DNA of 34,713 nt from Bacillota bacterium. GTDB taxonomy: Bacteria; Bacillota; Clostridia; Saccharofermentanales; UBA5734. Below are positions 8,498 through 25,643 of this stretch, piece by piece (position 1 is the first letter of the stretch; each line of letters starts with the position of its first letter). A program made the position numbers and the translations under genes. The notes below the pieces were generated by a model. That model worked only from the letters and a program-made list of their open reading frames with translations. It was not told where the DNA came from and did not search any database. The stretch is taken from NCBI GenBank assembly GCA_029548445.1, contig JAKPNJ010000247.1, forward strand, positions 1 to 34,713. The letters run 5' to 3'.

Positions 8498-8504
8498 ACA
8501 GAAA

Positions 8505-8530
8505 AAGGGGGGTGCCGTGCACCCCCCTGC
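8505..8530 (-). terminator. Rho-independent terminator for the acyl-CoA dehydrogenase gene
   Basis: Perfect 9-bp GC stem ggggggtgc/gcacccccc (8509-8517 pairs 8521-8529) with a 3-nt loop. On the minus strand it is followed by TTTTTCTG. It also sits just after the stop of the convergent + strand gene, so it may act bidirectionally. Confidence 0.55.
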
Positions 8531-8568
8531 ATGATCCCCGAACCCGCCCGTTGCATCGAGCGCCCCCG

Positions 8569-9732: not shown

Positions 9733-9935
9733 GTGCGTCTCCTTGTCCGTTTTTTCGCGTGCATCGGCATCGGTCCTCGGTCAGGGCCAGGCCAGGGGGA
9801 AAATCGGGGATATCTTGATTGTCAAAGCAATTATATGCGAAGGCGAAGCCCGATGCAACCACGCCGAACCGGGTTGTCCGACGCGGCCGTCCGAGGCGAC
9901 CGAGGCTGCCGTCCGAGGCTGCTGCCAGGGGAATG

Positions 9936-10823
9936 TCACGCCAGCCAGAGCAATCCCAGGGCCATGGTTACCCCGTTGGCCAGGATCGTATAGGCCAGGG
10001 GTTTGGGCCATTTCCGCTCCGCCATCCAGAAGAAGTAGGCCAGGAACTCCACCAGGATCACCAGGGTTTCCAGGGCGGCAAAGGCCACGAGGTAGTTCCA
10101 CTGGAAAGGCCCGGACACCAGGGCCACCAGCAGGACGTGGAGGAGGCCCTGGGTCGCCAGGTTGACGGGAATCGGCAGCCAGCGGCGCTTCGGAAACCGG
10201 AAGGGCAGGACCAGGAGGCATTCCACCAGGACCGTCAGGAACACCCGGCCCAGCAGCTTGAGCCACCACCAGAAACTCCCGGTGTTGGTCAGCACCGACA
10301 GGGTGTTCGCCCCCAGGTCATAGACCACCAGGGCGTCGAATTGGGTCGTCGTGATCGTGTCGGATACCCGGAGGGTCCCGGTGGCCCGGTCCTGGACGAG
10401 GACGGCGAAGGTGTCGGGGACGGCCATATAGGTAAACCTGTGCTCGATGGCGCCATCCGGCCGAAGGCTGCCGGACAGGTCGCCCCAGATGGCATACCCG
10501 TGGCAGAGCAGCCCGACCCGCCCTCCCTCCCGGTACTGGTAAATCGGGTACTCCCGGATCTCGGGATGCTCCTCTTCCAGCCAGCCGGTCTCGCCGGGTT
10601 CGGCGATGAAGGAACCATCTTCCGGGACCAGCAGGTCCAGGTAATAGTCATTCGGCGAGTCGGTGCCGATAACGCGGACGGTCAGCGAGGGTTTGGGACC
10701 CGCATCGGCCCGAACCGGCCCGGCCAGGCCGGACATGGCGGACCACAGGAGGAATCCAGCCAGGAAAGCGGCAGGCAACGCCAAGCGGCGACCGGATCCG
10801 GAGATGCGTTTCTGTGCGAACAT
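9936..10823 (-). CDS. Membrane protein of unknown function: signal peptide, extracytoplasmic N-terminal domain (~160 aa), then four TM helices
   Basis: Start MFAQKRISGSGRRLALPAAFLAGFLLWSAMSGLAGPVRA (RBS GGAAGGAG). The C-terminal third is strongly hydrophobic (FWWWLKLLGRVFLTVLVECLLVLPF..., LAYTILANGVTMALGLLWLA). It is the last gene of the glycosidase/isomerase operon. Confidence 0.6.
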   Translation of the reverse strand: MFAQKRISGSGRRLALPAAFLAGFLLWSAMSGLAGPVRADAGPKPSLTVRVIGTDSPNDYYLDLLVPEDGSFIAEPGETGWLEEEHPEIREYPIYQYREGGRVGLLCHGYAIWGDLSGSLRPDGAIEHRFTYMAVPDTFAVLVQDRATGTLRVSDTITTTQFDALVVYDLGANTLSVLTNTGSFWWWLKLLGRVFLTVLVECLLVLPFRFPKRRWLPIPVNLATQGLLHVLLVALVSGPFQWNYLVAFAALETLVILVEFLAYFFWMAERKWPKPLAYTILANGVTMALGLLWLA

Positions 10824-10897
10824 GGGATGGTCACTCCTTCCGATCCGTTCCGGTTCGGTCCGGAACCTGTCGGCACAGCGGGAGATCCGATCCCATT

Positions 10898-12907
10898 CTA
10901 CTCCTGCGGGGAAGCGGGGGACAAGGGAAGGCGGGGAAGCCGCCAGGCCTGCAGGAGGGCGTCGACGCTGTATCCGGTTTCCCAGGGGCGATGCTTGTTG
11001 CACCAGGAGAGGCTTCGTCCGTTTTCGTAGTATTCATTCCAGGATCCCGTCACATCCCGGAGGGACAGGACCCGGGATTCGGCCTCCGCGATCTCTTCCC
11101 GGGTTCCGCCGGAGGAAACCAGGGTGTACAGAAGCAGGGCGGGATCATAGCCGACCGTCCGGTTCTCAGGCCGAAAATCAGCCAGGAACCTTCTGGCCAG
11201 GGAGAGGGTTTCTGCCGGGGCCAGGAGATCGCTGCCCAGGTAGGCCGGCAACAGGCTGACCGACGGGATCTCCACCGGGCCCGGCGCCGGTGGTCCCTGG
11301 TATCCCGCCCCGTTTCGGCACCAGGGGCAGAGGTAGTGCCCGCCGCCATCGGTCTCCAGCCACCCGAAATGGATCTGGCCGAGGCTGGATCCCTGCTCGC
11401 AGACGCCGAACTTGAACCGGGGCCTGTCCCGGAGAGCGGCCTCCCGCTCCGGGGCGTTGGCCACGAGCCTGCCGTTTCGCAGGAAATGCGTCCGATATCC
11501 GGACCGGACCCGGGATGCGGCGCAGGCCACTTCCCGGAGACGGTCGAGGGTCCCGTTCCGGCGAGCCCACCCGCACAGCCATTCGGCGGCCAGGAGGAAC
11601 AGGAGCGTCGCCTCGGCCGCGCCATGGAGTAGCGCCGACCGGGGCAGAAGAAAGCCCGCCACATAGGTTTCGTCGCCATTGAACGGGAGCATGTCCTCCA
11701 CCAGGTGCGGCAGCTGGACCCGAAGACACCACTCCAGCATGGGCAGGATCGTCCGGATGTGGGTGTCGTCGCCGGTGGCGCGCCAGTAATCCCTTGCGGC
11801 CAGCACGAGATAGGAGGTCTGCTCGACATGGTCGTTCTCGGCGGGATGCCGGGGTTCGTCCCGTCCCATGGCCTCGGCGTTGACCAGGTCGCCGAATCGC
11901 TGGAACTTGCCGAAACGGAATTCCAGGATCGACCGGGCCGCCTCCGGATAGCCCATCGCCAGCAGCCCCCGGACTGCACCGTAGTTGTCCCTGGAATAGC
12001 CCACCGGCAGGAAATGGGCCGATGGAAGCCCGCCCTCCAGCGATTGCTGGCAGCGGATCAGGAGCAGGGCTTCCTCCAGCAGGTCCCGTCTCCATTGATC
12101 CGCTTCTCCCGGAACGAGGCCCAGGCGTTCCGGGTCCAGGCGTCCGGTGAATCGGCGCCATGAGTTGACCGCATCCCGCTCCAGGTCCTCCGGCCGCAGG
12201 GGCGACAGGAATTCCACCGCCTCGACGGCGCCGGCATGGGAGAGATCCGCCACAAAGGCCAGGTCCGCATCGCCTGGACCGATCCGGAAGACCAGGTCTC
12301 CCTCTCCCCCTTCCTGGTTCCTTCCCTCCAGGTTGACCGGCTCCACGGGCCCGTCGACTTGTCCCCGAATCCGCAGGAAGCCGTATGAACTCCGGGCGTC
12401 CGTGTGGAACAGGATGGCGTTGCCCGGCAGGACTTCGAACTGGATGAGGATCGTCCCCGGTTCCGGGTCCCTCCGGGCAGACCAGCACCGATGCCGGCCG
12501 GGAAAGCGGATCCGCTGCAGAATCGGGGTCTCCAGGTTCCGGTAGAGCCGAAGCAGGGCGGGCACATCCCGCGGGACCACATCCCGGATTTCCGGAACCC
12601 CTTCCGGGATCGGGCCGTCCGGCGGGCAAACAGGCGGGCCCTCGGCAGGCTCGTTCTCCTGGTTGATGGACAGGATGTGCCGCCGGATCGGGGTGCCGGG
12701 CACGCGGACGGTCCGGGTTTCCAGCCGGTGACCGGCGACGGGGGACAGCAGGATCCGGGCCAGGGACGTGGATGTATAGGGGCGATAGATGTCGGCGATG
12801 TCCGGTCCATGGCTGTACGCCAGGAGTTGTCCGTTGCCCTGGGAGACAATATGCTCGTACAGCGGGTTTCCCGAAGGGTCCCAGCGCCACGGGACGATCC
12901 GGTTCAT
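10898..12907 (-). CDS. Six-hairpin (alpha/alpha)6 glycosidase-like protein with N-terminal beta-sandwich region (family unresolved; GH15/GH63/GH65-type architecture)
   Basis: 669 aa. The N-terminal ~250 aa are beta-rich; the remainder is helix-rich with acidic motifs (FNGDETYVAGF, DEPRHPAENDHVEQTSYLVLAARDYW). Clear paralog of the upstream 661-aa protein. Start overlaps the upstream stop (ATGA). Confidence 0.7.
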   Translation of the reverse strand: MNRIVPWRWDPSGNPLYEHIVSQGNGQLLAYSHGPDIADIYRPYTSTSLARILLSPVAGHRLETRTVRVPGTPIRRHILSINQENEPAEGPPVCPPDGPIPEGVPEIRDVVPRDVPALLRLYRNLETPILQRIRFPGRHRCWSARRDPEPGTILIQFEVLPGNAILFHTDARSSYGFLRIRGQVDGPVEPVNLEGRNQEGGEGDLVFRIGPGDADLAFVADLSHAGAVEAVEFLSPLRPEDLERDAVNSWRRFTGRLDPERLGLVPGEADQWRRDLLEEALLLIRCQQSLEGGLPSAHFLPVGYSRDNYGAVRGLLAMGYPEAARSILEFRFGKFQRFGDLVNAEAMGRDEPRHPAENDHVEQTSYLVLAARDYWRATGDDTHIRTILPMLEWCLRVQLPHLVEDMLPFNGDETYVAGFLLPRSALLHGAAEATLLFLLAAEWLCGWARRNGTLDRLREVACAASRVRSGYRTHFLRNGRLVANAPEREAALRDRPRFKFGVCEQGSSLGQIHFGWLETDGGGHYLCPWCRNGAGYQGPPAPGPVEIPSVSLLPAYLGSDLLAPAETLSLARRFLADFRPENRTVGYDPALLLYTLVSSGGTREEIAEAESRVLSLRDVTGSWNEYYENGRSLSWCNKHRPWETGYSVDALLQAWRLPRLPLSPASPQE

Positions 12908-14889
12908 GGCCGGGCTCCCCCGGCGGCTCTCCGGCCCCGGGCCGACAGGTACCGGACCAGGGCTTCCAGGTTGATGCCCGTGCTGAAGATGTTCAGGTTG
13001 TGGGAGTTTTCGACGCCGTGGGGGCCGTAGAATTCGGAGTAGGTCCCCGAGGCGCCCATGAGCCCGCCGTCGACCAGGGTCCGGAATACGGCCTCTGTCT
13101 CCTCCTCCGGGCGGTCCATCTCCACCAGGTCATACAGCAGGTACCCCAGGGTATGACCCGGAAATCCCTCGTTGACCCCGGGACAAACCGGGAGGAACCC
13201 GGTGTCGGGCCGGAGATCCGCCATCGCCGACAGGGCATCGGTTCGCTCTCCCCCTTCCGGAAACGCCGCCCCGAGCCACAGGGGCATCAGGCGATGGGGC
13301 AAAATCGGAAAGGGAGACGGGGTCCCGTCGGGATGAAGAGTCGTATGGCGGCATCCGCTTGCGCGATCGAGGAAATGGCGGTCCACCTGGTCCCGGATCC
13401 AGTCCGCGGCGTCCCGGTACCCCTGCGCCTCCCCCTCCCGCCCGGTCCGGGCCAGGTACTCCGTCAGGAACCGGGCCGAGGCCAGGGCGCCGGCGACGGC
13501 GGCCAGGGAGAAGTTCCGCAGGTCCCAGTCCGGCAGGCTCCCGTACATCCGACCGTCCACCGACGGCACATACCGCTCGGTCTCGTCCCCATGGAACCGG
13601 AGACGGCCGTCATGCCGAAGCGCCACATCCAGCTGGGCGTCCACCGCCCGGCGGAGGGATTCCTCCACCTGTTTCAGCAAGGACAGGTCGCCGGTCCTCT
13701 CCAGGTATCGGCGAACCAGGAGGACATAGTAGGCCGTGCTCTCGGAGGCCAGGTTCTCCTCCGGCAGGCCCAGGTCCAGGAGGATGGCGTCATGCCCCGT
13801 CTCGGCCCCGTTTGGCACATGGCCGAACTTCCGGACCCGGCGGTCCACCCACAGGATGAAGTCCCGCAGTTCCTCCGTGTAGCCGCAGGCCGTCAGTCCC
13901 CGCAGTCCGCCGTGGCTGTCCCGCAGGTAGGAGAAGGAATACGCCTGGGGACAGGCCATGAACCCCCCGTCGAAGCAACGGCAGGACCGGATGGCCACCA
14001 GCATCCCCTCGATGGCCAGGTCCAGCCGGGGGTCGCCGGATGCCGGGGCCTGGGAGCGGGCCAGCCAGTCCCCCCATTCCTTCCGGGTCCGGGCCAGGAC
14101 GCCGTCGGGATCCCGGTAGGGATCCGGCATGGGGAGGGTCGGGGATTCGGAGTGCATGGCCGGCACACCGGCGAGATCCAGCTCGGCCCCGGTCCAGTGG
14201 ACCAGGCACAGGCTGGCATGGCAGCCGGGCTCCAGGCGGATCTCCCCGGTCCGCAGCACGAAGGCGCCGTCGGCCTCCCGGCGGGCGTCGAAGGGCCCGG
14301 AGAACCCGATCCGCACGGTCCTGGCCAGGGAGGAACGGGGGTTCTCGTGCTCGTTCCAGCCGAAGACCGGATCCTCGGGTCCGGCAGACAGGCGGAGGAA
14401 GCCGTCCGGCAGGATCTCGCCCCGGCCGTTCCGGGACACGATCCGGGCCTCCAGGCGGATCGTCACGGCGTCCCCGGATGCTTCCCCATCGCCGAAGGCC
14501 GCCGCCGTTTCGTCAGGCGTCAGGGACCCGCCGGTCCGGCGGGGGCCAACCGTGATCCAGCGAAGGATCCAGGGGGCGTTGCGGACCGTCGTGTCGACGA
14601 TTCGGACGGGCAGGTCCGCGATCCGGTCCTGTCCCAGGAGGCTGCCTGTGCCCTGGATCCGCAGCATGGGCATGCGAAGGGGAGCGGACACACCGTTCCG
14701 GACGAGAGCCAGGGTTTCGATCCGGAGAAAGTTGGGGGCGGTATAGCCGGGGCCGATAAGAAAATTCCAGTCACATCCGCCGTCCACGGTGCCGGCGCCC
14801 GCCACCTGGCTGCCGACGAACTGTTTCTCCAGCCGGCCCAGGGGGGTGCAGGCCGGAAGGAATGCCGGGTTGCCGCTGCGAATCGCCAT
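12904..14889 (-). CDS. Six-hairpin (alpha/alpha)6 glycosidase-like protein (paralog of the 10898..12907 gene)
   Basis: 661 aa from MAIRSGNPAF (RBS GGAGGAG). Motifs RFHGDETERYVP and NGAETGHDAILLDLGLPEENLASESTAYYVLLVRRYLERTGD parallel the downstream paralog. The ORF track extends it 59 codons upstream into the isomerase gene; that extension is rejected. Confidence 0.7.
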   Translation of the reverse strand: MAIRSGNPAFLPACTPLGRLEKQFVGSQVAGAGTVDGGCDWNFLIGPGYTAPNFLRIETLALVRNGVSAPLRMPMLRIQGTGSLLGQDRIADLPVRIVDTTVRNAPWILRWITVGPRRTGGSLTPDETAAAFGDGEASGDAVTIRLEARIVSRNGRGEILPDGFLRLSAGPEDPVFGWNEHENPRSSLARTVRIGFSGPFDARREADGAFVLRTGEIRLEPGCHASLCLVHWTGAELDLAGVPAMHSESPTLPMPDPYRDPDGVLARTRKEWGDWLARSQAPASGDPRLDLAIEGMLVAIRSCRCFDGGFMACPQAYSFSYLRDSHGGLRGLTACGYTEELRDFILWVDRRVRKFGHVPNGAETGHDAILLDLGLPEENLASESTAYYVLLVRRYLERTGDLSLLKQVEESLRRAVDAQLDVALRHDGRLRFHGDETERYVPSVDGRMYGSLPDWDLRNFSLAAVAGALASARFLTEYLARTGREGEAQGYRDAADWIRDQVDRHFLDRASGCRHTTLHPDGTPSPFPILPHRLMPLWLGAAFPEGGERTDALSAMADLRPDTGFLPVCPGVNEGFPGHTLGYLLYDLVEMDRPEEETEAVFRTLVDGGLMGASGTYSEFYGPHGVENSHNLNIFSTGINLEALVRYLSARGRRAAGGARP

Positions 14890-14917
14890 GGGAGTCTCCT
14901 CCTGCTGCAGGACCGGG

Positions 14918-16348
14918 TCAGCGACCCAGGATCTCCACGTCCACGTCCAGCATCCGGCAGACGGCCGAGAGATCCTCGATCCAGTCGCCATAGACGGCGT
15001 GGCAGTGGTTCGCGTCAAACCGCTCCAGGAAGACCTGGGGGTCGAAGGGCAGTTTCGCGAAGACATGGGGCCACTCGGGCGTGGTCTCGGCCATTTTTTC
15101 CCGGGGCAGCTCCACGAACTCCGCCGGGATCAGGGTCATCCGGTACCGCCCGCAGGTCCGGTTCAACCGGGCGATGGTGGCGGTACCGGCCTTCGTCATG
15201 CAGTTGACATGGGCCCCGCCGCCGGAATAGATCTCCAGGCAGGGATAGAACGTCACCTGCCGAAGGTTTTCCGCCGGATCGTCCGACCGGCCGGCATACC
15301 AGGTGGACTCGGACCCGCAGTTGCAGAAGACCATGACGCCATATTCCCGGTCCACGTGGCGCACGTCCATGAATAGCACCGGGTCGTCGGTCAGCAGCCG
15401 GAGGATCTGCATGGTCAGGGCCCCATCGGAATCGGCCTCGCAGGAAAAGACCACCGGCTCCTTCGGGCCGTTCCAGTCGTAGGGATCGTTCATGAAGGCG
15501 GCGGACAGGCACTGGGTGCAGTGGTGGCGGCTCATCTCGTAGTGGCACTTGACGCCGACGAAGTCGAAGCGGCGCTCCGCGGCGATGCGCTTCGTCGCCT
15601 CGTAATGGCGGATCTGGGTCTTGAGTTTTTCCGGTGTGAGCCGTACCCCGTCGTACCGGATCGACCCCACATGGGATTCCAGCCACGCGAAGGCCCGTTC
15701 CACCGTCTCCGGATCCACCTCCCCGGCCAGCCGGACGATTTCCGACTGGTCCAGGTGCTCGATGTCCACGCCGAACTTGTCCTGCCAGTCCTGCATGGAG
15801 ACCGTGGCACTGTACATGCCCAGGCTCCGGCCCCCGATGAGGCCGTAGGTGGATCCCCGGAGCCGGCTTGCCACCCGGGCGCACCGGGCGAAGGACAGCA
15901 CCTTCTCCAGGACCTCGGGCTCCCGGATGTCCCCGGCGACCCGGAAGTGGTCGATCCCCAGGTGGTGGAGGGCGCCGCCGCTGGCCAGCATGGCCACCAT
16001 CCCGGGCCAGTCGGGATTCAGGTTGGCCGCCAGGAGGAAGGGGCCCTTCCCATTCTTCGCCGCGATGGCGGAAAAATTCGGAAAGCTGAAGACGCCGTAC
16101 GAGAAAATGGTCCCGTCCACATCCCGGGCCACCATCTTCAGGGATTCCTCCCGGGCCGTCTCCGGCGAGCAGACCAGTCGGTCGCCCACCACGACCTCGA
16201 CCTTTCCCGACTCCCGCAGGGCGTCGGCGATGGCCGAGAGTTGGGCCGAGACGATGTCCTTCAGCTGCTCATGGACCTCCGGCTCGCCGTCGGAGAAGCC
16301 GAGAATGCCGATCCGGGGCTTGCCCGTCGTCCTGGATGTTCCGTTCAT
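14918..16348 (-). CDS. L-fucose isomerase / L-arabinose isomerase family (FucI-like) aldose-ketose isomerase, about 476 aa
   Basis: From MNGTSRTTGKPRIGILGFSDGEP (RBS GGAGG) it has FucI-family features: N-terminal GILGFSDG, central GVKCHYEMS...CTQCLSAAFMNDPYDWNG...VVFSCEADSDGALTMQILRLL. The 168-codon upstream extension in the ORF track is GC-rich garbage. The ATG overlaps the dhaL stop (ATGA). Confidence 0.8.
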   Translation of the reverse strand: MNGTSRTTGKPRIGILGFSDGEPEVHEQLKDIVSAQLSAIADALRESGKVEVVVGDRLVCSPETAREESLKMVARDVDGTIFSYGVFSFPNFSAIAAKNGKGPFLLAANLNPDWPGMVAMLASGGALHHLGIDHFRVAGDIREPEVLEKVLSFARCARVASRLRGSTYGLIGGRSLGMYSATVSMQDWQDKFGVDIEHLDQSEIVRLAGEVDPETVERAFAWLESHVGSIRYDGVRLTPEKLKTQIRHYEATKRIAAERRFDFVGVKCHYEMSRHHCTQCLSAAFMNDPYDWNGPKEPVVFSCEADSDGALTMQILRLLTDDPVLFMDVRHVDREYGVMVFCNCGSESTWYAGRSDDPAENLRQVTFYPCLEIYSGGGAHVNCMTKAGTATIARLNRTCGRYRMTLIPAEFVELPREKMAETTPEWPHVFAKLPFDPQVFLERFDANHCHAVYGDWIEDLSAVCRMLDVDVEILGR

Positions 16349-17001
16349 GCGCGATCCTCCTTCATCAGGTCCCGGATTCCGTCGGTCATGGCCCGCAGCA
16401 GCAGGTCGCAGGAGGCGGCTCCCGCGTCGGGGAACCCGCGGCTCCGTTCCCCCAGCCGGCTGGCCCGGCCGACCCGGGCCACCATGTCCCGGGTGGATTC
16501 GAATCCTGCAGCGGACGCGGCGTCCAGGGCCTCGAGAGCGTCCCCGAAGGGTTCCCCCCGGTCCAGGGCGCCGGCCAGGGCCGACACCGCCGGAACCAGC
16601 ACGTCCAGCAGGGTCTTGTCCCCCGGCTCGGCACCGCCCACCGCCCGGATTTTGGCCAGGCCGGCCTGCAGCATCCCGAGGAATGCCGGCCCGTCGACCC
16701 GGTCCAGTCCCCTGGCGGCTTTCGCCATCTCCAGGAAGAAGGACCCGTAGAGCGGTCCCATGGAGCCGCCGATTTCCATCAGGAGCACCCGGCCCAGGGT
16801 CCGGAGGCTCTCTTCCAGCCCCCTGGGCTCCCCGGCCAGCCGCTCGGCGCACAGGCCGAAGCCCTTGGCCATGTTGATGCCATGGTCCCCGTCACCGATG
16901 GCCCCGTCGATGGCGCTGAGTCGATCCCGGTTCTCGCGGATCGCCCGGATCATCCGGTCCACCAGGAGGCCGCCATCCCGGGCCGGGAATCCCGCCGCCA
17001 C
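16345..17001 (-). CDS. dhaL: Dihydroxyacetone kinase family, ADP-binding subunit L (DhaL)
   Basis: DGAIGDGDHGINMAKGF motif and DhaL four-helix fold length (218 aa). Confidence 0.9.
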   Translation of the reverse strand: MAAGFPARDGGLLVDRMIRAIRENRDRLSAIDGAIGDGDHGINMAKGFGLCAERLAGEPRGLEESLRTLGRVLLMEIGGSMGPLYGSFFLEMAKAARGLDRVDGPAFLGMLQAGLAKIRAVGGAEPGDKTLLDVLVPAVSALAGALDRGEPFGDALEALDAASAAGFESTRDMVARVGRASRLGERSRGFPDAGAASCDLLLRAMTDGIRDLMKEDRA

Positions 17002-17004
17002 GGG

Positions 17005-18033
17005 TCAGCCCTCCCCGGCGCCGGGGGAGCCCCGGCGGAACTGGCGGAGGCCCACACTCTCGGCCTCGTCGTCCAGCAGGTCCGCCAGCGTGTCGTCCAG
17101 CTTCAGGAGGGTCAGGGTGACGCCCATCATCTCCAGGGACGTAAAGTAATTTCCTACGTAGGAGCGGTGGAGGGAGATCCCGGCCCCGTCCAGCCGCTCC
17201 GCCACCCGCCGGAACAGGATGTAGAGTTCCATGATCGGCGTGGCACCCAGGCCCGAGACCAGGACGGCGACCCGGTCTCCCGCCCGGAAATCCCCGTCGG
17301 GCAGGAGGAGGTCCAGCATGGCATCGGCCATGGCATCGGCGGAGGCCAGGGGTTCCACCCGGATGCCCGGCTCCCCGTGGTGCCCGATGCCCACTTCCAT
17401 GGTCCCGGATTCGATGGTGAAGTTCGGCCTGCCCACCGCCGGGATCGTGCAGGGCGTCAGGCCGATGCCCACGCTGCGGGTCCGGTCCACGGTTTGCTGG
17501 GCGACGGCGGCCACTTCCTCCAGGGAGGCCCCCCGGGCGGCCAGGGCGCCGGCCACCTTCCACATCAGCACTTCCCCGGCGACCCCCCGCCGCCTGGAGC
17601 GCTGGTCCGGCGGCGCCGAGGCCGCATCGTCGTCGGCCACCACAGCCAGGACCCGGATCCCGTCCTCCTCGGCCATGTCCCTTGCCATCCGGACATTCAT
17701 GTTGTCCCCGGCATAGTTCCCGTACAGGCAGACGACGCCCTGTCCGGAATCGGCCACCCGGATCGCATCGTAGAACGCCTGGGCGGTCGGGGACGAGAAG
17801 ATCTCTCCCACCGCCACGGCATCCACCAGGTTCCGGCCGAGATAGCCGATGAACGCCGGCTTGTGCCCCGAACCGCCCCCGGTTACAATCCCCACCTTGC
17901 CCGGCACGGGAACCCCCCGGGCCTTCAGCACCCGGGGATTCGACGTGGGCTCCACCAGGTCCGGATGGGCCCTGACAAACCCCGCGAGCATCTCCTCCAC
18001 CACCCGGTCCGGATCATTGACAATCCGCTGCAT
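17005..18033 (-). CDS. dhaK: Dihydroxyacetone kinase family, substrate-binding subunit K (DhaK)
   Basis: MQRIVNDPDRVVEEMLAGFVRAHPDL parallels E. coli DhaK MKKLINDVQDVLDEQLAGL. GKVGIVTGGGSGHKPAFIGYLG carries the substrate-binding His. RBS GGGGGAG. Long upstream extension in the ORF track rejected. Confidence 0.9.
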   Translation of the reverse strand: MQRIVNDPDRVVEEMLAGFVRAHPDLVEPTSNPRVLKARGVPVPGKVGIVTGGGSGHKPAFIGYLGRNLVDAVAVGEIFSSPTAQAFYDAIRVADSGQGVVCLYGNYAGDNMNVRMARDMAEEDGIRVLAVVADDDAASAPPDQRSRRRGVAGEVLMWKVAGALAARGASLEEVAAVAQQTVDRTRSVGIGLTPCTIPAVGRPNFTIESGTMEVGIGHHGEPGIRVEPLASADAMADAMLDLLLPDGDFRAGDRVAVLVSGLGATPIMELYILFRRVAERLDGAGISLHRSYVGNYFTSLEMMGVTLTLLKLDDTLADLLDDEAESVGLRQFRRGSPGAGEG

Positions 18034-18586
18034 TCGACTCTCCCCCGCCTTCGCGGCTCTCGCGGCCCTCTCGGCTCTTGCGGTCTTCCCGGCCTTCCCG
18101 TCCGTCCGCCGCCCTTCTTCCCGAATCCGCCGGTTCCCCGGACCATCGGGACGCCTCGTAGGCCCGGATCCGTTCCACCTTGGGCAGGGATCCCCCGCCC
18201 TCGAATTCCGACTCGAGCCAGGTAGCCACCAGGGTCCTGGCCAGTTCCTCGCCCACCACCCGGGCGCCCAGCGCCATGACCTGGGCGTCGTTGCTCTTCC
18301 GGGCCCGCTGGGCCGAGTACGGATCGTGGCACACCGCCGCCCGGACCCCCGGGACCTTGTTGGCTGCAATGGCCATGCCGATCCCCGTCCCGCAAACCAG
18401 GATCCCCCGGGCATGCCGGCCGGCAGCAATGCCCTCGGCCACGGCGATGGCGATGTCGGGATAGAGGACCGGCCTCGTATCGTGGACGCCGTAGTCCTCG
18501 ACATCAAAACCCCGGTCCTGCAGAAATGACTTCAGGCGCTCCTTCAGGGCGAATCCCGCTTCGTCGCTGCCGATGGCGATGGTCAA
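18014..18586 (-). CDS. RpiB/LacAB-family sugar-phosphate isomerase with a charged low-complexity C-terminal tail
   Basis: A TTG start gives (M)TIAIGSDEAGFALKERLK..., matching the canonical RpiB N-terminus MKIAIGSDHAGF. It is preceded by AGGGGAGGAAAGgcc. ILVCGTGIGMAIAANK is the RpiB active-site loop. The tail REGREDRKSREGRESREGGGES overlaps the dhaK start by 20 nt. Confidence 0.8.
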   Translation of the reverse strand: MTIAIGSDEAGFALKERLKSFLQDRGFDVEDYGVHDTRPVLYPDIAIAVAEGIAAGRHARGILVCGTGIGMAIAANKVPGVRAAVCHDPYSAQRARKSNDAQVMALGARVVGEELARTLVATWLESEFEGGGSLPKVERIRAYEASRWSGEPADSGRRAADGREGREDRKSREGRESREGGGESNAADCQ

Positions 18587-18639
18587 GGCCTTTCCTCCCC
18601 TGGGTCCGGGCTGGCGGGTCCGGATGGACACATGGCTTT

Positions 18640-18700
18640 CTTGGTGCGCAGTATTTCATATATGAATTATAGTTATCTTATATGATTTGATTGTATGCCT
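18640..18700 (-). promoter_or_regulatory. AT-rich promoter/operator island upstream of the rpiB-dhaKL-isomerase operon; contains the perfect palindrome TTCATATATGAA and the 12-mer TTATCTTATATG
   Basis: About 35% GC against a ~70% background. The 12-bp palindrome ttcatatatgaa sits at about 18654-18665. A minus-strand TATAAT lies in the island. The island is between the rpiB operon and the IclR gene. Confidence 0.5.
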
Positions 18701-18803
18701 CCAGCCCGGTTCCGTCAAGACAGGAACAGGGCCCCCGGCGGGGGCCCTGCGGTGTGGCGGCGGAAGGGAACGGAAGGAACGGCGGGAGACCGCCGGCCCG
18801 GCC

Positions 18804-19613
18804 TCAGTCCCGGGCGCCCAGGCGGGCCGACAGGTCCCGGGCGGCCTCGCGGACCAGTCCGGCCAGTTCGGCGAACCGCCGGGGATCCAGGTATTCCTCC
18901 ACGTGGCCCGTAATGCCCAGGGCGGCGGTCACGACGCCCGCATGATCGAACACCGGCGCAGCCAGGCACCCGATCCCGATGGCGAATTCCTCGATGTCCA
19001 CGGCGTACCCGTCCAGGCGGACCCGGTCCAGCTGTTCCAGGAAGGCGTCCCGGTCCTGGAGGCTCCGGGCGGTACGCTTCTCCAGGGTGGCGGCCTGGAC
19101 ATACTCGCGACGCTCGGTGTCCGACAGGAAGGCCAGCAGGACCTTGGCGGAGGCGCTGAGGTTGACGGGGATCACGGTTCGGAGGGGAGCGATGATGCTG
19201 ACGGGCCGGAGGGGCAGGACCTGGTCCACATACAGGACGCCGTCCCGCTGGAGGAGACCCAGTTGGGCGGTCTGGCCGCAGCGGGCCGAGAGCGTCTTCA
19301 GGACGGGCCGGGCGACCTCGACGGGGTCCAGCTGCCGGACCAGGTGGCGGGAGAGGGTCAGGAGGCGAAACCCCAGGCCGAAGCGCGACTGGGTTCCGGG
19401 GTATTCCTTGAGGTACTCCCGGGCGGTCAGCTGGCGGACGATCCGGAAGGCCGAAGCCGGGGGAATGTCCAGGGCCTTGGAGAGTTCCTTCAGGGTGGCA
19501 GGCCCCTCGAGGTCGCCCAGGAACTCCAGGATGTCCAGGACCCGCTCCAGGGCGGGCACGGCCGGGGGACGGGACGGGGATGCGCCGGCTTCCCGGTTGG
19601 TTCGATTCGCCAC
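18804..19613 (-). CDS. IclR-family transcriptional regulator
   Basis: N-terminal wHTH (LERVLDILEFLGDLEGPATLKELSKALDIPPASAFRIVRQL) plus a C-terminal IclR effector domain. GTG start (VANRT) with a strong RBS AAAGGGAGGG and a 6-nt spacer; the ORF-track ATG start would overlap the NusG paralog. Confidence 0.85.
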   Translation of the reverse strand: MANRTNREAGASPSRPPAVPALERVLDILEFLGDLEGPATLKELSKALDIPPASAFRIVRQLTAREYLKEYPGTQSRFGLGFRLLTLSRHLVRQLDPVEVARPVLKTLSARCGQTAQLGLLQRDGVLYVDQVLPLRPVSIIAPLRTVIPVNLSASAKVLLAFLSDTERREYVQAATLEKRTARSLQDRDAFLEQLDRVRLDGYAVDIEEFAIGIGCLAAPVFDHAGVVTAALGITGHVEEYLDPRRFAELAGLVREAARDLSARLGARD

Positions 19614-19632
19614 GGAATACCCTCCCTTTCGC

Positions 19633-20271
19633 CTAGTCGGGATCATCGACGAATTCGGCGGCGATGTCGATGACATGGACCGCTTCCTCCAGCGAAATCC
19701 GGATCCGGACCCGGTGCTTCCGGCGGTTCACCCCGACGATCACGCCCTCCAGGCCCACCAGGGGTCCCGACGCCACCTTGACGGTCTGGCCTTCGCAATG
19801 GACCCGGGAGAAGGTGATCAGGTCCCCGCCCCGGGTCAGGCGCAAAATGATCTCCATCTCCCGGGCCGGCACCGGGGTTGGCAGGCGTCCGGCCCCGGAG
19901 GCCCGCTGGCCCAGGATCTTCAGGACATGGGCCAGGGACCGGATCCGGAAATACAGGACCTCGTCCATGACCGTCCGGACGAAAAGGTAGCCCGGCAATA
20001 ACGGGCGCCGGACCGTCCGCTCCCGGCCCATGCACCGCTCGATCATCTCCCGGATCGGCAGCAGGACCTGCAGGCCGGGATCCAGGTAGGACAGCTGCCG
20101 GCGGACGCTTTCCTCCGAGCCGGTCCGCACGAACAGCGCAAACCACTGCGCGTCCCGCGGCGGTTCCGTCGTCGGCCGCTCCACATTCCGGGTCGTTCCT
20201 GCGTCGTCCACCGGCTGCCCCTCTCCGAAATCGTCGCCTCCCATTCTATTCGTTTCCCGGGAAGCCCGCAA
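19633..20271 (-). CDS. Specialised NusG paralog (NGN + KOW domains; LoaP/UpxY/RfaH-like processive antiterminator)
   Basis: NGN domain: WFALFVRTGSEESVRRQL...LLPIREMIERCMGRERTVRRPLLPGYLFVRTVMDE...RIRSLAHVLKILG. KOW domain: GQTVKVASGPLVGLEGVIVGVNRRKHRVRIRISL. Start uncertain (ATG at 20271 or 20244, or a GTG after GGAGAGGGG). Confidence 0.8.
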   Translation of the reverse strand: MRASRETNRMGGDDFGEGQPVDDAGTTRNVERPTTEPPRDAQWFALFVRTGSEESVRRQLSYLDPGLQVLLPIREMIERCMGRERTVRRPLLPGYLFVRTVMDEVLYFRIRSLAHVLKILGQRASGAGRLPTPVPAREMEIILRLTRGGDLITFSRVHCEGQTVKVASGPLVGLEGVIVGVNRRKHRVRIRISLEEAVHVIDIAAEFVDDPD

Positions 20272-20332
20272 GGAAAGGCCCGGAACCGGATGCGGCCGTC
20301 CGTCGGCTGCGCCCGTCCGTCGGCAGCGGCTG

Positions 20333-21028
20333 TCAGCCCTGGCCGTAGGTGGCGGTCCGGCCGTGCTTCCGCAGGTAGTGCCGATCCAGGAGGAAGCTGT
20401 CGATGGGCTGCTTGTCCGGCCGCAGCAGGCGGGTGTGGAACGCCATCCTGGCGCACTCCTCCAGGATGACCGCGTGGTGGACCGCCTCCACGGCGTCCCG
20501 GCCCCAGGCGAAGGGCCCGTGGTCGGCCACCAGGACCGCCGGGATCGCGTCCGCCGTCAGTCCCCGCTCCTGGAAAGTCTCGATGATCACGGCGCCGGTG
20601 TTGGCCTCGTATTCGCCCTCGATCTCCTCCCGGGTCATGTTTCGGGTGCAGGGCACGGAGCCGTAGAACGTATCCGCGTGGGTCGTGCCGTAGGCCGGCA
20701 GGTCGAGGCCGGCCTGGGCGAAGATCGTGGCCCAGTGGGAATGGGTGTGGACGATGCCGCCGATGCCGGGAAAGGCCTTGTACAGCGCCAGGTGGGTCGC
20801 CGTGTCCGTGCTGGGCCGGTAGGTGCCGGACACCACCCGCCCGTCCAGGTCCACCACCACGATGTGCCGTTCCTCCATGCCCTCGTAGGGCACGCCGCTG
20901 GGCTTGATGGCCACGAGCCCCTTCTCCCGGTCGATGGAGCTGACGTTCCCCCAGGTAAAGGTCACCAGGCCGTACTCGGGCAGCAGGAGATTGGCCTCCA
21001 GGGTCTTGCGGATGATGGGCTGGATCAT
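20333..21028 (-). CDS. araD: L-ribulose-5-phosphate 4-epimerase
   Basis: Near-colinear with E. coli AraD: [79 protein letters not shown]. Start overlaps the araB stop (ATGA). Confidence 0.95.
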
Positions 21029-22713
21029 GTCACGCCTCCTTCCCGCGCCTGCCGGCGGATCTCCTTCAGGCGCTTCATGACGTCGTTCTCCCCCCGGCCG
21101 AAGTAGTCGTGGAGAATCCGGTACTCGGCGTACAGGCGGTCATAGACCTCGGCATGGGCCGGATTCGGCCGGTAGACCAGGTCCTTCAGCCGGGGCATGA
21201 CCCTGGCCGCCTCGAAGATGGAGTTGTACCCGCCCCGGGCCTTCCCCGCCGCCACGGCCCCGAACATGGCGGAGCCCAGGGCCACGGTCTGGTCGCTGGC
21301 GGAAATGCGGAACTCCCGGCGGGTCACGTCGGCGTAGATCTGCATCATCATGGGGTCCTTGGAGGCGATGCCGCCGCAGGCCAGGATCTCCCGGACCGGG
21401 ACGCCGTTGGCCTCGAAGGTCTCGATGATCATGCGGGTCCCGTAGGCGGTGGCCTCGATGAGGGCCCGGTAAATCTCCTCCGGCCGGGTGGCCAGGGTCA
21501 GGCCCACCATCATGCCGGTCAGGTCCACGTCCACCAGCACCGACCGGTTGCCGTTCCACCAGTCCAGGGCCAGGAGGCCGCTTTCGCCGGGCTTCTGGAC
21601 CGAGGCCTTCTCCCGGAGCAGGGCGTGGATGCCCAGTCCCCGCGCCTCGGCTTCCTTCCGATAGGATTCGGGCACGCAGGTGCGCACGAACCAGTCGAAG
21701 TGGTCGCCCACGCAGGACTGGCCGGCCTCGTATCCCAGGTACCCGGGCAGGATGCCGTCTTCCACGACGCCGCACATCCCCGGCACGTTGTGCTCCTCGG
21801 TGCCCAGGATCATGTGGCACGTGGACGTGCCCATGATCATCAGCATCCGGCCCTCTTCGGCGATCCCCACAGCCGGGACCGCCACATGGGCGTCCACATT
21901 GCCCACCGCCACCGCAGTGCCGGGCAGCAGGCCGGTCAGCTCCGCCCCCCGGGCGTTGATCTCCCCGGCCTTCTCCCCGATGGGACGAATGTTCCGGGAG
22001 AGCTTCTCGTCCACCACATGCTCCAGGGCCGGGTCCAGGGCCTTGAAAAATTCGTTGGAGGGGTAGCCGTCGCGCTTGTGCCACATGGCCTTGTAGCCGG
22101 CGGTGCAGCTGTTCCGGGCCTCGACGCCGGTCAGGAGGAGGACGATCCAGTCCGTGGCCTCCAGGAAGCGGTCGGCGGCTGTGTAAATGTGGGGCGCTTC
22201 GTCCAGGACCTGCCAGATCTTCGGGAAGAGCCATTCGGAGGAGATCTTCCCGCCGTACCGGGCCAGGAAGGCCTCGCCCCGCCGGGCCGCCACGGCGTTC
22301 AGCCGGTTGGCTTCGTCCTGGGCCGCATGGTGCTTCCATTTCTTCACATAGGCATGGGGCTCCTTCCGGAATTCCGGCAGGAAGCACAGTGGCGTTCCTT
22401 CCGCGTCGATGGGCAGGCAGGTGCAGGCGGTAAAGTCGATGCCCACCCCGATCACATCCTCCGGCGACACCCCGGCCTCCTTCAGGACCGCGGGCACCGT
22501 GTCCCGGAGCACCTCGATGTAGTCTTCCGGATCCTGGATCGTCCAGTCATGGGGCAGCCGCTGCCCCGATGCCGGCAGGACGTCCTCGATGAATCCGTGG
22601 GTGTAGTTGCGGACCGCCGTGGCCACTTCCCGGCCCGTGTCCACCTCCACCAGCAGCGCCCTGCCCGACAGGGACCCGAAATCGATGCCCAGCGAATACT
22701 TCCTGTTGCCCAT
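21025..22713 (-). CDS. araB: Ribulokinase (FGGY family)
   Basis: [24 protein letters not shown] is the FGGY N-terminus typical of AraB; the length (562 aa) and C-terminal motifs are consistent. RBS AAGGAGGAACGGAC-ATG. The 18-codon upstream extension in the ORF track is rejected. Confidence 0.93.
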
Positions 22714-22794
22714 GTCCGTTCCTCCTTGCGTGTGCCGTTTCCCGGCCGTTTCCGAACTTCCCTGCATCCCGATTCCTGGTCCCGGTTCGCCCTG

Positions 22795-24027
22795 TTACCC
22801 CGGCGGCGGGCCGGTGCTCCGGCCGGGGATCAGCCGGGCCGGCATCACGAGTTCCCTCGGAGAGGCCGACGGGTCCCGCAGCCGCTCCAGCAGCAGTTCC
22901 ACCGCCCGGACGCCCAGCCGCCTCCGGGGATGGGTCACGGTGGTCAGGCCTCCCAGCCCGCCGTCCCGGTCCGCTCCCGCCGTTCCGGATGCCCCTGCAA
23001 CCCCCGGCCCAGGGCCGTACCAGGCAGACAGCCGGGCCAAGTCGGACCCGTCGAACCCGGTCAGGGAGAGATCCTCCGGAATTCGGACGCCCTTGCGTCC
23101 CATGGCCTCCGCCAGGCGGACCCCAACCTGGTCGTTGTAGCAGCAAAGCGCCGTGGGCCGACGATCGGGCGGACAGGCCAGCCAGCGGTCAGCCGTCCGG
23201 TCCGCCAGGGCGTCGGGGTCCCGCAGGTCCCCGGCGTCGAACCAGAGGAGCAGCCCGGCGTCGTCTTCCCCTGCCGAAAGGCCCAGGTCGGCGATGGCCC
23301 GCCGGAATCCCTCCCGGCGCCGGCATCCCTGGATGTCGTCTTGCTTGAACAGGCCGCCGATCCGCCGATGGCCCAGGCCATGGAGATGCCGGACCAGCCG
23401 GTCCATGCCGCCCTCGTCGTCCGGCCGGACGCAGGAGGCGGCGACGTCGGGCAGGTCGCCGTGGATGAACACCACCGGCATCCGCTCCGCCAGGTGGGCG
23501 ATGGCGGACCGATTGCCCCCGGGAAGGGCGCTGCGGGCGGGCTCCAGGACCAGGCCGTCCATGCCCTGTTCCTGGAGGGTCTGCAGGCAGCGGGCCTCCC
23601 GGGAAGTCGAGTTGCCCGAGGAGGCCATGACCAGGCCCAGGCCGGCCTGCTGCAGCCGTCCGTCGATGCCCTGGAGGATGTCGGTAAAAATATAGTGGTC
23701 GAGGTGGGAAATCAGGACGCCGATCCGGCCGGTGGACCGGGACGGGGCGGCCGCTCCGCCTTTGGATCCGCGGGTCCGGGCAGGGGTCCGGACATAGGTG
23801 CCGCTGCCCCGGGTTCGCTCCAGCAGGCCGTCGTGGGTCAGGTCCGACAGGGCCTGGCGGGCGGTGTTGCGGCTGATCCCGAACCGGGCGGCCAGGTCGT
23901 TTTCGGAGGGAGCCCGGTCCCCCGGGCGGAGGCGGCCTTCCCGGACCAGCCCCCGGATCCATTCCCGGACCTGGACATACTTGGGCTGTCCGTTGGCGGT
24001 GGTCGGCTCCTGTCCGGTTCGGTCCAT
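22795..24027 (-). CDS. araR: AraR-type arabinose repressor (GntR-family N-terminal HTH fused to LacI/GalR-type periplasmic-binding-like effector domain)
   Basis: GntR HTH YVQVREWIRGLVREGRLRPGDRAPSENDLAARFGISRNTARQALSDLTHDGLLERTRGSGTYV is followed by a LacI-type sugar-binding domain. This is the same chimeric architecture as Bacillus AraR. Start at MDRTGQEP. Confidence 0.85.
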   Translation of the reverse strand: MDRTGQEPTTANGQPKYVQVREWIRGLVREGRLRPGDRAPSENDLAARFGISRNTARQALSDLTHDGLLERTRGSGTYVRTPARTRGSKGGAAAPSRSTGRIGVLISHLDHYIFTDILQGIDGRLQQAGLGLVMASSGNSTSREARCLQTLQEQGMDGLVLEPARSALPGGNRSAIAHLAERMPVVFIHGDLPDVAASCVRPDDEGGMDRLVRHLHGLGHRRIGGLFKQDDIQGCRRREGFRRAIADLGLSAGEDDAGLLLWFDAGDLRDPDALADRTADRWLACPPDRRPTALCCYNDQVGVRLAEAMGRKGVRIPEDLSLTGFDGSDLARLSAWYGPGPGVAGASGTAGADRDGGLGGLTTVTHPRRRLGVRAVELLLERLRDPSASPRELVMPARLIPGRSTGPPPG

Positions 24028-24055
24028 GGCCCCTCCCCCGGCGTCGCACTCGGGA

Positions 24056-24071
24056 AGTTGTTCATACAACT
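24056..24071 (-). promoter_or_regulatory. AraR-box-like 16-bp palindrome AGTTGTtcatACAACT upstream of araR (likely autoregulatory operator)
   Basis: Perfect 6-bp arms AGTTGT/ACAACT. The half-sites TTGTtc/atACAA match 10 of 12 positions of the Bacillus AraR operator core TTGTAC/GTACAA. Located about 30-45 nt upstream of the araR ATG. Confidence 0.5.
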
Positions 24072-24120
24072 GCCCTGATTTTACCAAGGCGGCGCCCCAG
24101 GGGCAAGGGGACGGCGTCCA

Positions 24121-24492
24121 CTACAGGGGATCGAGCTCCACGAGACCGATCACGGTATCCACCACATCCGCCAAAATGTCCGGTGGGCAGGATTCAATAA
24201 AGACCGCTCCCCGGGCGATCGGGTCGATGGCTCGTACCTGGTCGCAGAGAACGACTCCCTGTGTATTGGTTCGCTCGTCAAGATCCATATGGATCGGCAG
24301 TCCCTTGCGAGTCCGTGTGATCGGGCAGGCCACCACCGTCGAGGCTCGCTCATTGTATTGATTTCGACTGATTATCAAGGCAGGACGATATCCCTTCTGT
24401 TCATGACCGTCCTGCGAACTGAAGTCGATTCGGACGATGTCTCCCTGTCGCGGCATATGGACTCGGGTATACCGTGTTGCCGAACGGGCCAT
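24121..24492 (-). CDS. mazF: MazF/PemK-family type II toxin (mRNA interferase)
   Basis: GDIVRIDFSSQDGHEQKGYRPALIISRNQYNE is the canonical PemK/MazF N-terminal strand-loop. About 120 aa. The start overlaps the antitoxin stop by 1 nt (TAATG). Confidence 0.9.
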   Translation of the reverse strand: MARSATRYTRVHMPRQGDIVRIDFSSQDGHEQKGYRPALIISRNQYNERASTVVACPITRTRKGLPIHMDLDERTNTQGVVLCDQVRAIDPIARGAVFIESCPPDILADVVDTVIGLVELDPL

Positions 24493-24740
24493 TACCAGAC
24501 CTCCTTCCCGACCCGTCCATCCCAGTCGGGCACCGACGAATCCAGCCGTCCTGCATAATCGCCCAATCGTTCCGACAGGGTCCGATGCGATCGTTGTGGA
24601 CGAAAACGGACAATTCGAATCTCGCCATCCTCCGCCAGGAGGGAAACCGGGTCATCGACCCGGAACCCCGCCTTATTCATATCATCCTTCGGGAGCCGAA
24701 CAGCGCAGCTGTTCCCCCAGCGGGCAATCCTGGTTGTCAT
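24492..24740 (-). CDS. mazE: MazE/AbrB-type (SpoVT/AbrB swapped-hairpin) antitoxin
   Basis: MTTRIARWGNSCAVRLPKDDMNKAGFRVDDPVSLLAEDGEIRIVRF matches the MazE/PemI AbrB-fold (RWGNS.A.R.P). 82 aa. RBS GGAGGTGG. The ORF-track version carries a 160-codon spurious N-terminal extension that overlaps the XRE gene. Confidence 0.8.
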   Translation of the reverse strand: MTTRIARWGNSCAVRLPKDDMNKAGFRVDDPVSLLAEDGEIRIVRFRPQRSHRTLSERLGDYAGRLDSSVPDWDGRVGKEVW

Positions 24741-24819
24741 CGGAACCACCTCCGAGATCAGTATATCCCATGTAGATACGTCGAACAAGTCCGGCCAGGC
24801 GGCCCGTCCCAACGGAATA

Positions 24820-25386
24820 CTATGGTTCCGCCGGCCAGAGGTCCCGGTCCAGGTACAGGGCGGCTTCGGACCGAAGGGCACTGTTGGCGTACAGGCTCTC
24901 CTGGTTCGCCAGGATGGACCGCCGGGCCAGCCGGACCGCCGCGTCGGCGTCGCCGGTCCGGGCGGCCTCCCGGGCCGCCCCCAGGCAGGCATGGGCCAGG
25001 AGGATCCGGGCCTCCTCCCGGGCGGGCCCCGCCTCCGGATCGGCCAGGACCGCCTCCGCCCCCTGGATCGCCTCCAGGAACGCGCCGGATCGCAGGGCGC
25101 TTCTCGACGGCCCCAGGGGATCCTCCCACCGGCCGCGACCGGGCGACACGGCCTCGCCGACCGGGTCGGACCCGCGGTCCGGTTCCGGGCCGGCCAGCAG
25201 CTCCGCCTGGGAGATTCCGAGGGCACGGGACAGGGATTCCAGGGTTTTCAGCGACGGCGAGGCGAGGCCGTTCTCGATCTGGCTCAGCATGCTCCGGGTA
25301 ATCCGGTCTCCCGCCAGGTCCTGCTGGGTCATCTGCCGGGCAATCCGAAGTTCCTTGATCCGTCGTCCGATCCGGGCCGGATCCAT
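24820..25386 (-). CDS. XRE-family (Cro/CI HTH) transcriptional regulator with C-terminal TPR-like helical domain
   Basis: IGRRIKELRIARQMTQQDLAGDRITRSMLSQIENGLASPSLKTLESLSRALGIS is the HTH_XRE signature. The C-terminal ~90 aa form helical repeats. Start at MDPARIG (RBS GGGGAGG); upstream extension in the ORF track rejected. Confidence 0.8.
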   Translation of the reverse strand: MDPARIGRRIKELRIARQMTQQDLAGDRITRSMLSQIENGLASPSLKTLESLSRALGISQAELLAGPEPDRGSDPVGEAVSPGRGRWEDPLGPSRSALRSGAFLEAIQGAEAVLADPEAGPAREEARILLAHACLGAAREAARTGDADAAVRLARRSILANQESLYANSALRSEAALYLDRDLWPAEP

Positions 25387-25407
25387 GGGAACACCTCCCC
25401 TCTGAAT

Positions 25408-25455
25408 GTCAATATAATTTACATTCATCCTACCGCGCCGGCCGGAAGATGTCAA
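25408..25455 (-). promoter_or_regulatory. Promoter of the XRE regulator (minus strand TTGACA-N17-TAGGAT) with operator palindrome overlapping the -10/+1 region
   Basis: On the minus strand, TTGACA is the complement of 25450-25455, then a 17-nt spacer, then TAGGAT (complement of 25427-25432). The palindromic site GTCAATataATTTAC (25408-25422) lies immediately downstream. Confidence 0.55.
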
Positions 25456-25489
25456 TTCACCTCCATCGGTCCTTCGAGCCGGAAGGTTC

Positions 25490-25537
25490 TTGACAGGCGG
25501 CGTTCACGGGGATAGAATCATGGTAAACTACATTTAC
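25490..25537 (+). promoter_or_regulatory. Promoter of the nfeD-flotillin operon (TTGACA-N17-TAGAAT) with operator GTAAACtacATTTAC at +1
   Basis: ttgaca at 25490-25495, a 17-nt spacer, tagaat at 25513-25518. A near-perfect 15-bp palindrome occupies 25523-25537, the same motif class as the site in the XRE promoter. Confidence 0.6.
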
Positions 25538-25643
25538 AACCTCGTCGCATCTCCTGTCGATGCGATGGCGCGACACCGCAGGAAGCGGGCGGGCACCAGC
25601 CGGTGCCGGAGCGCACCGGATCGGGTGTGGAAAGGAGCGTTCA

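Follow-up and report, generated by a model that had tools for sequence, protein, structure and literature searches.

Specialised NusG paralogs are seen as switches for long, costly and often horizontally acquired operons, such as those for capsules, LPS, antibiotics and conjugation. In proteins of the NusG family, the NGN domain is the one that binds RNA polymerase. RfaH of Proteobacteria, which is monocistronic, recruited by DNA and directed mainly against Rho, is brought to long operons in a sequence-specific way and suppresses termination there. UpxY of the Bacteroides capsule operons is an operon-specific paralog whose gene heads the unit that it controls or lies inside it. To our knowledge, no recruitment element other than a hairpin with a UNCG tetraloop has been described for LoaP, the antiterminator of the dfn and mln operons of B. 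velezensis. Characterised LoaP binds this hairpin in the leader of its target and counteracts NusA-stimulated intrinsic terminators (PMC12691694). The loaP, taA and upxY genes adjoin their targets (PMC7819879), and the neighbours listed for NusG paralogs are genes of envelope biogenesis, secondary metabolites, secretion, H-NS and toxin-antitoxin systems, with catabolic operons not in the list (PMC7819879, PMC7593976).

The stretch of DNA analysed here (the window) is an entire metagenomic contig of 34,713 bp, and near-identical copies of its locus are present in two JGI metagenomes, one ENA metagenome and Logan assemblies. The JGI datasets are 3300010344 and 3300009767, and the ENA dataset is ERZ795049. 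The Shine-Dalgarno sequences, the type of AraR and the relatives suggest a Bacillota origin. One of its genes, referred to as loaP below, is an intact member of the LoaP family and hence a specialised NusG paralog, an assignment that is well supported. The protein is a divergent new LoaP in an atypical context, and standard annotation would already name it 'antiterminator LoaP'. The context is regarded as atypical because the genes that follow loaP belong to a catabolic operon, a class missing from the neighbours described (PMC7819879, PMC7593976).

Reading frame, family and fold of the loaP product

The open reading frame comprises 212 codons on the minus strand, from TTG 20271 to the TAG stop at 19633, and its composition is of the coding type, with a GC3 of 0.86 similar to that of the neighbouring genes. 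Its description in the first-pass annotation as a coding frame with NGN and KOW domains is upheld by this composition and by Pfam matches to the ORF, which place the NusG NGN domain at residues 42-142 (62.5 bits) and the KOW domain at residues 160-190 (25 bits). The length of 212 aa given with that description holds for the ORF and not for the public gene call, which starts at ATG 20244 and yields 203 aa (19633-20244, minus strand); the exact 203-aa product (P0001) is present in the gene-call data of NCBI, JGI and ENA. The alternative starts are TTG 20271, which gives 212 aa, and GTG 20211, which gives 192 aa and is preceded by a good Shine-Dalgarno sequence, GGAGAGGGG, so that a start is possible there too. 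Since three starts are possible, the N-terminal extension measures 14-42 aa and the gap to araD 61-88 nt or more; araD is close, as had been reported, at a distance set by the start codon rather than at a fixed 60 bp.

The extension comprises residues 1-32 of the 203-aa form (20149-20244, minus strand) and is predicted to be disordered, with an AlphaFold2 pLDDT of 63-71 and no secondary structure. It had been described as long and Pro/Thr-rich; an extension is indeed present, but its composition is acidic and Gly-rich with some Pro and Thr, and is not markedly Pro/Thr-rich. The extension is probably genuine, since the proteins of the nearest relatives carry N-terminal extensions of 8-60 aa as well. 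The LoaP HMM match and the onset of NGN lie at residue 34 of the 203-aa form. The NGN domain occupies residues 33-136 (19837-20148, minus strand; Pfam PF02357) and is modelled with a pLDDT above 90, and the KOW domain occupies residues 146-198 (19651-19809, minus strand; Pfam PF00467), where the strands placed by AlphaFold2 form a predicted beta-barrel.

LoaP is the sole NusG-type model whose cut-off the protein passes. The whole protein scores 140.1 bits on NF033641 (LoaP, NCBIfam), against a curated cut-off of 125, and lies below the cut-offs of the UpxY model (71.9 bits vs 100), of TIGR00922 for nusG (59.1 bits vs an equivalog cut-off of 135.7) and of the RfaH model (32.8 bits vs 144.5). 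Of the first label, LoaP/UpxY-like, the LoaP part is therefore retained and the UpxY part is dropped; UpxY also belongs to another phylum and another target class, and there is no UpxZ-like partner here. The best 40 representatives of the loaP product in a library of 1.8 billion proteins all score highest on the LoaP model, and NCBI names one relative with 43% identity 'antiterminator LoaP'. The protein resembles RfaH in being a specialised NusG paralog, and differs from it in its score and in its KOW domain, which is modelled as a beta-barrel. What it has in common with housekeeping NusG are the NGN and KOW domains and, presumably, the place on RNA polymerase where the two bind. The earlier statement that it is not the housekeeping protein is supported by the TIGR00922 score and by the KOW motif, which is the LoaP-type SGPLxGxEGxI (alignment consensus) and not the NusG-type motif; as judged from sequence, a housekeeping NusG is effectively excluded.

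The top PDB sequence match is 8f5g (E 5e-25, vs 5e-13 for E. coli NusG), whose chain is 33% identical to the loaP product. The chain was deposited as 'NusG-RNA complex' and itself scores 185 bits on NF033641, and it is therefore taken to be a LoaP. The same entry is the top fold match of an AlphaFold2 model built from an alignment of 27 relatives (pLDDT 88.4, pTM 0.78). Both domains superpose on 8f5g (TM 0.87-0.90, target-normalised; rmsd 2.6-3.3 Å over 166-177 columns), whereas full-length NusG and RfaH chains align over a comparable length only at an rmsd of ~13-18 Å, and otherwise over a single domain. The predicted fold is a compact arrangement of two domains like that of LoaP, from which the product differs by its disordered N-terminal extension of ~32 aa. 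The RNA-binding residues of B. velezensis LoaP are E40, R41 and I143, mutation of which abolishes function (PMC12691694). In the loaP product, E69-R70 of NGN and I169 of KOW stand at positions conserved among LoaP-like proteins, where 90% or more of 40 sequences have the E and the I, and the E-R pair is matched to E43-R44 in the alignment with 8f5g. E69-R70 and I169 may be the counterparts of E40-R41 and I143 in the B. velezensis numbering, in which case the ER motif and the KOW isoleucine of LoaP would both be kept.

Gene order and predicted elements around loaP

Every gene between 24087 and 8506 lies on the minus strand, and the gene assignments on either side agree with the first placement of loaP between araBD and the iclR/catabolic operon. 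Upstream of loaP and co-directional with it is araR-araB-araD (20333-24087, minus strand), in which araR encodes a GntR N-terminus with a sugar-binding domain, araB (21025-22767, minus strand) a ribulokinase-type FGGY kinase and araD (20333-21028, minus strand) an L-ribulose-5-P 4-epimerase. The gap between araR and araB is 27 nt. Directly upstream of araR lie a MazE/PemK-type toxin-antitoxin pair and an XRE-family regulator, at ~24121-24740 on the minus strand (L001:5505-6124). The gene for L-arabinose isomerase, araA, is absent from the contig beside araR-araB-araD. A FucI-superfamily isomerase of 476 aa with unassigned specificity is encoded in the downstream operon (14918-16348, minus strand); speculatively, it might supply the missing arabinose isomerase step and so link the ara genes with that operon. 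Neither secE nor rplK occurs anywhere on the 34.7-kb contig and the neighbours of loaP are araD and iclR, in line with the claim of a context other than secE-nusG-rplK.

No terminator or strong promoter is predicted between araD and loaP. The gap between the two genes contains a tandem repeat of two 17-nt units (20287-20320, minus strand), within which the exact 12-mer GCCGACGGACGG occurs twice at a spacing of 17 nt. The repeat may be bound by a protein, or it may have arisen by chance in DNA so rich in G+C.

The gene after loaP encodes an IclR-family regulator (18804-19613, or to 19676, minus strand) with the Pfam domains HTH_IclR and IclR_C. Its GTG start at 19613 is preceded by a strong Shine-Dalgarno sequence, AAAGGGAGG, and lies 20 nt past the loaP stop; because of this spacing and the Shine-Dalgarno sequence in front, iclR and loaP are probably co-transcribed. 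After iclR, and upstream of the promoter of the catabolic operon itself, stands a G+C-rich hairpin (18717-18750, minus strand) with perfect 11-nt arms at 18727-18749, followed by UUCCUGUCUU. The hairpin is terminator-like with a weak U-tract, overlaps the -35 element of the next promoter and failed a strict terminator scan. Weak U-tracts are a trait of NusA-dependent terminators. No structure other than this hairpin is a candidate for a regulated stop.

The catabolic operon is served by a sigma-70-type promoter (18690-18718, minus strand; TTGACG-17-TACAAT, 10 of 12 matches), which places the start of transcription near 18683. The operon leader had been taken to be 18587-18700, and the position of this promoter makes that definition too simple. 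Directly past the -10 element lies an AT-rich palindrome (18652-18669, minus strand), TTCATATATGAA, in a contig of 67% G+C, and it is likely to be the operator of the IclR regulator. Two 12-nt segments in this region, 18606-18617 just before the rpiB Shine-Dalgarno sequence and 18698-18709 in the promoter spacer, are 92% complementary. They can pair only in RNA that reads through from iclR, and such pairing might distinguish this RNA from promoter-initiated transcripts.

The operon consists of seven genes over 8.7 kb (9936-18586, minus strand) and starts ~1 kb downstream of loaP. As had been stated, loaP lies directly upstream of iclR and of this sugar-catabolic operon, which runs from rpiB with all genes on the minus strand; a position just upstream of a long co-directional operon is shared with LoaP. 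The operon encodes an RpiB-family isomerase (rpiB, the first gene), DhaK, DhaL, the FucI-superfamily isomerase, two paralogs of ~650-670 aa and a membrane protein. The two paralogs (12904-14916 and 10898-12907, both minus strand) match no Pfam or NCBIfam model, even when E=1 is allowed. Their family, large, widespread and annotated only as 'hypothetical proteins', has rare members that match trehalase or GDE_C models, and is probably an undescribed one of glycoside-hydrolase-like proteins. The closest homologue of the glycosidase-like gene (locus L093) stands amid a GH51 arabinofuranosidase, a GH78 rhamnosidase, a sulfatase, a GH36 enzyme and a sugar-binding protein. The seven-gene operon is therefore best read as serving glycan or sugar catabolism, possibly tied to the arabinose genes. 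Sugar/glycan catabolic genes and iclR thus take the place of the polyketide or polysaccharide biosynthesis genes that adjoin LoaP, and no polysaccharide-synthesis or polyketide genes are found on the 34.7-kb contig.

Related loci and recruitment signals

Among ~15 billion proteins, none is more than 50% identical to the loaP product apart from its own near-identical copies. The other contigs that carry this loaP gene are 99.9-100% identical, so that the arrangement is that of a single lineage, and araBD, loaP, iclR and the operon were not found together in any other genome. When 28 window proteins were compared by tblastn with the eight closest loci, only loaP gave a match. Relatives were drawn from a library of 1.8 billion representative proteins, and, as for LoaP, the closest of them come from Bacillota assemblies.

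The nearest relatives, at 36-48% identity, fall into two groups by context. The first group has six loci, all in different Bacillota assemblies, in which a shikimate/aromatic-amino-acid operon (tyrA ... pheA), the loaP-like gene, an ABC transporter (ABC_tran + ABC_tran_2) and a V-type ATPase operon follow one another on the same strand (loaP-like genes at L084:10001-10585, L087:6591-7211, L088:10001-10564, L089:10001-10546, L090:1278-1808 and L092:8001-8534). The start of the loaP-like gene overlaps the end of pheA or directly abuts it (5 nt) in all six, and its stop overlaps the start of the ABC gene in two. One such locus is on contig JAYFQE010000011.1 of GCA_034927345.1. A description of this array, with its primary-metabolism context, was not found in the papers cited here. 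The other near relatives, of the same subclade at 39-47% identity, lie in classical polysaccharide synthesis clusters. A neighbour-joining bootstrap tree of 27 relatives, in which some distances are saturated, did not assign the window protein to either the shikimate/V-ATPase group or the polysaccharide group.

More distant relatives, at 35-38% identity, head late or structural operons of prophages. Two such genes (L009:2907-3434 and L010:10004-10501), one in a Bacillota MAG and the other in Paenibacillus sp. NPDC057967, are flanked by a Mu Gp27-like gene on one side and a large ORF/portal/capsid operon on the other, which suggests that phage late-operon antiterminators of the LoaP type exist. 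The second of these loci also has a 6-bp UUCG hairpin 11 nt after the loaP-like gene. In all 11 relative loci examined, the loaP-like gene is directly followed by a long operon that runs in the same direction, a position that agrees with the adjacency reported for loaP, taA and upxY (PMC7819879).

The search for UNCG-tetraloop hairpins covered both strands of the window and the 11 relative loci. With a stem of at least 3 bp, none was found in the iclR-rpiB, araD-loaP and araR-araB gaps, upstream of araR or in the intra-operon gaps, and the number of such hairpins across the window equals that in shuffled sequence. The relative loci likewise have none in the relevant leaders, and their totals equal those of shuffled controls. 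A hairpin common to L087 and L088 was rejected as an RNA element: it lies ~83 nt inside the coding sequence of the ABC ATPase, where it reads in frame as E-I-F-G, and for this reason it is taken as conserved coding sequence.

The first-pass annotation named the operon leader and the araR-araB leader as places to search for an ops-like recruitment element. Such 12-mers are at chance level, with 44 matches in the window vs 43.9 expected, and the leaders examined have none on their minus (coding) strand; the contrast with RfaH extends to this point. Rfam gives no match above the gathering threshold near loaP and none at E<=5 over 18400-24400, and folding of four leaders as RNA is no better than that of shuffles. 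Terminator-like sites in 8000-25600 are at chance level (10 vs 8.4 expected), with none convincing inside the operon. Unlike the targets of LoaP, the adjacent leaders thus have neither a UNCG-tetraloop hairpin nor a clear terminator. This weakens the neighbouring operon as a canonical LoaP target and leaves the identity of the protein as LoaP untouched. The suggestion that the paralog is dedicated to the catabolic operon is not borne out either, since it was drawn from adjacency and the leaders carry no UNCG, ops or Rfam element.

Elsewhere in the window, three C-G-closed UGCG-tetraloop hairpins with stems of at least 7 bp occur around an MFS gene and a FAH gene, at 5422-5439 (plus strand), 6828-6845 (minus strand) and 7693-7712 (plus strand), vs 0.55 expected in shuffles. 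The second of them, a cUGCGg hairpin with a 7-bp stem (6845-6828, minus strand), was rejected as a leader RNA; it lies between divergent genes, upstream of a -35-like TTGACA of the MFS gene, and is probably a DNA palindrome.

Candidate targets of the antiterminator

From the likeness to characterised LoaP we infer that the loaP product would bind RNA, be recruited at a particular site, act on a chosen target and affect termination, read-through of a hairpin included. By this analogy, the protein would attach to elongating RNA polymerase through NGN, and NGN and KOW together would hold a nascent-RNA hairpin, so that the polymerase would resist NusA-stimulated intrinsic terminators. The likeliest target would be the same-strand transcription unit that contains loaP. 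The loaP and iclR genes would share a transcript, which would arise through read-through from araR-araBD or start at a weak promoter that serves these two genes. Polymerase modified by LoaP would next get past the 18727-18749 hairpin, or remain processive along the 8.7-kb operon, or both, and IclR would govern initiation at the promoter and operator (18718-18652). The reading that we favour, with slightly more doubt than trust, is therefore a LoaP-type antiterminator that is expressed with iclR and acts on polymerase in its own same-strand neighbourhood, while IclR gates initiation.

The order of loaP, iclR 20 nt away, a strong hairpin and a seven-gene operon on the same strand speaks for a neighbouring target, which also stays plausible because the gene heads a long same-strand operon in every relative locus examined. 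Against it, the operon has a good promoter and operator of its own and is thus not obviously in need of read-through. The arrangement is confined to one lineage, and neither a NusG-like nor an IclR gene lies near the closest homologue of the glycosidase-like gene in L093. Moreover, B. velezensis LoaP acts in trans on the distant mln operon (PMC12691694).

This last point also favours the main rival, in which a genuine LoaP serves a target in some other part of the genome and its adjacency to catabolic genes is incidental. Such a target might be a cluster for polysaccharides or secondary metabolites whose leader has a UNCG hairpin and a terminator. The lack of a recruitment hairpin in the neighbouring leaders and the non-conservation of the context fit a remote target well, and members of the same subclade lie in classical polysaccharide clusters. 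A remote target is harder to reconcile with the relatives examined, each of which adjoins a long co-directional operon, with a contig that holds nothing like a classical target, and with the tight spacing of loaP and iclR, which suggests co-expression with a local regulator. On balance it is a serious possibility, though one that we would not expect to hold. The target could instead be the upstream unit araR-araBD-loaP-iclR, of which loaP is itself a distal gene; LoaP would then exert positive feedback on the processivity of its own operon and not of the downstream one. For UpxY and TaA, the gene lies inside the target (PMC7593976), the loaP-like genes of the six shikimate/V-ATPase loci are fused to the end of the upstream operon, and neither a terminator nor a strong promoter is predicted between araD and loaP. 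The ara unit is short (~4.5 kb) and without internal terminators, its araR-araB gap leaves 27 nt and no hairpin element lies upstream of araR, so that feedback of this kind is improbable.

An orphan lineage with a unique context might also be expected of a decaying or functionless remnant of a rearrangement. The gene has an intact reading frame with host-like codon usage, all family-invariant residues and a confident fold prediction, and the same sequence, with one P/S difference, is recovered from the JGI, ENA and Logan metagenome datasets; decay is thus very unlikely. Least credible, to the point of near certainty that it is wrong, is a housekeeping NusG displaced from the secE-nusG-rplK locus. 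The NGN and KOW architecture and a view of the genome confined to 34.7 kb would allow it, but the low TIGR00922 score, the LoaP-type GPLxGxEG motif, a LoaP as the best structural match and the NCBI name of the 43%-identical relative all stand against it.

Action on the same-strand neighbourhood can also be placed in a broader picture, in which antiterminators of the LoaP type reach beyond the biosynthesis of antibiotics and envelope polysaccharides, and a divergent LoaP subclade has been recruited to ordinary metabolism and uses an RNA or DNA recruitment signal other than the UNCG hairpin. Here, together with IclR, it would couple the arabinose genes to the catabolic operon, and in the nearest relatives it would join the shikimate operon to the ABC/V-ATPase operon. 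This picture is doubtful as it stands. If loaP does control the catabolic operon, carbohydrate utilisation would gain processive antitermination as a level of regulation, and LoaP would have a wider range of targets and recruitment signals. The regulatory link is put forward as a hypothesis, for which this locus and the shikimate/loaP/V-ATPase array provide concrete, testable cases.

At the far end of the window, a c-di-GMP-I riboswitch lies at 944-1023 on the minus strand (61.4 bits vs a gathering score of 35), upstream of a transglutaminase-like gene. Because the riboswitch occupies these positions, the ORF listed as 1-1080 must start downstream of it.
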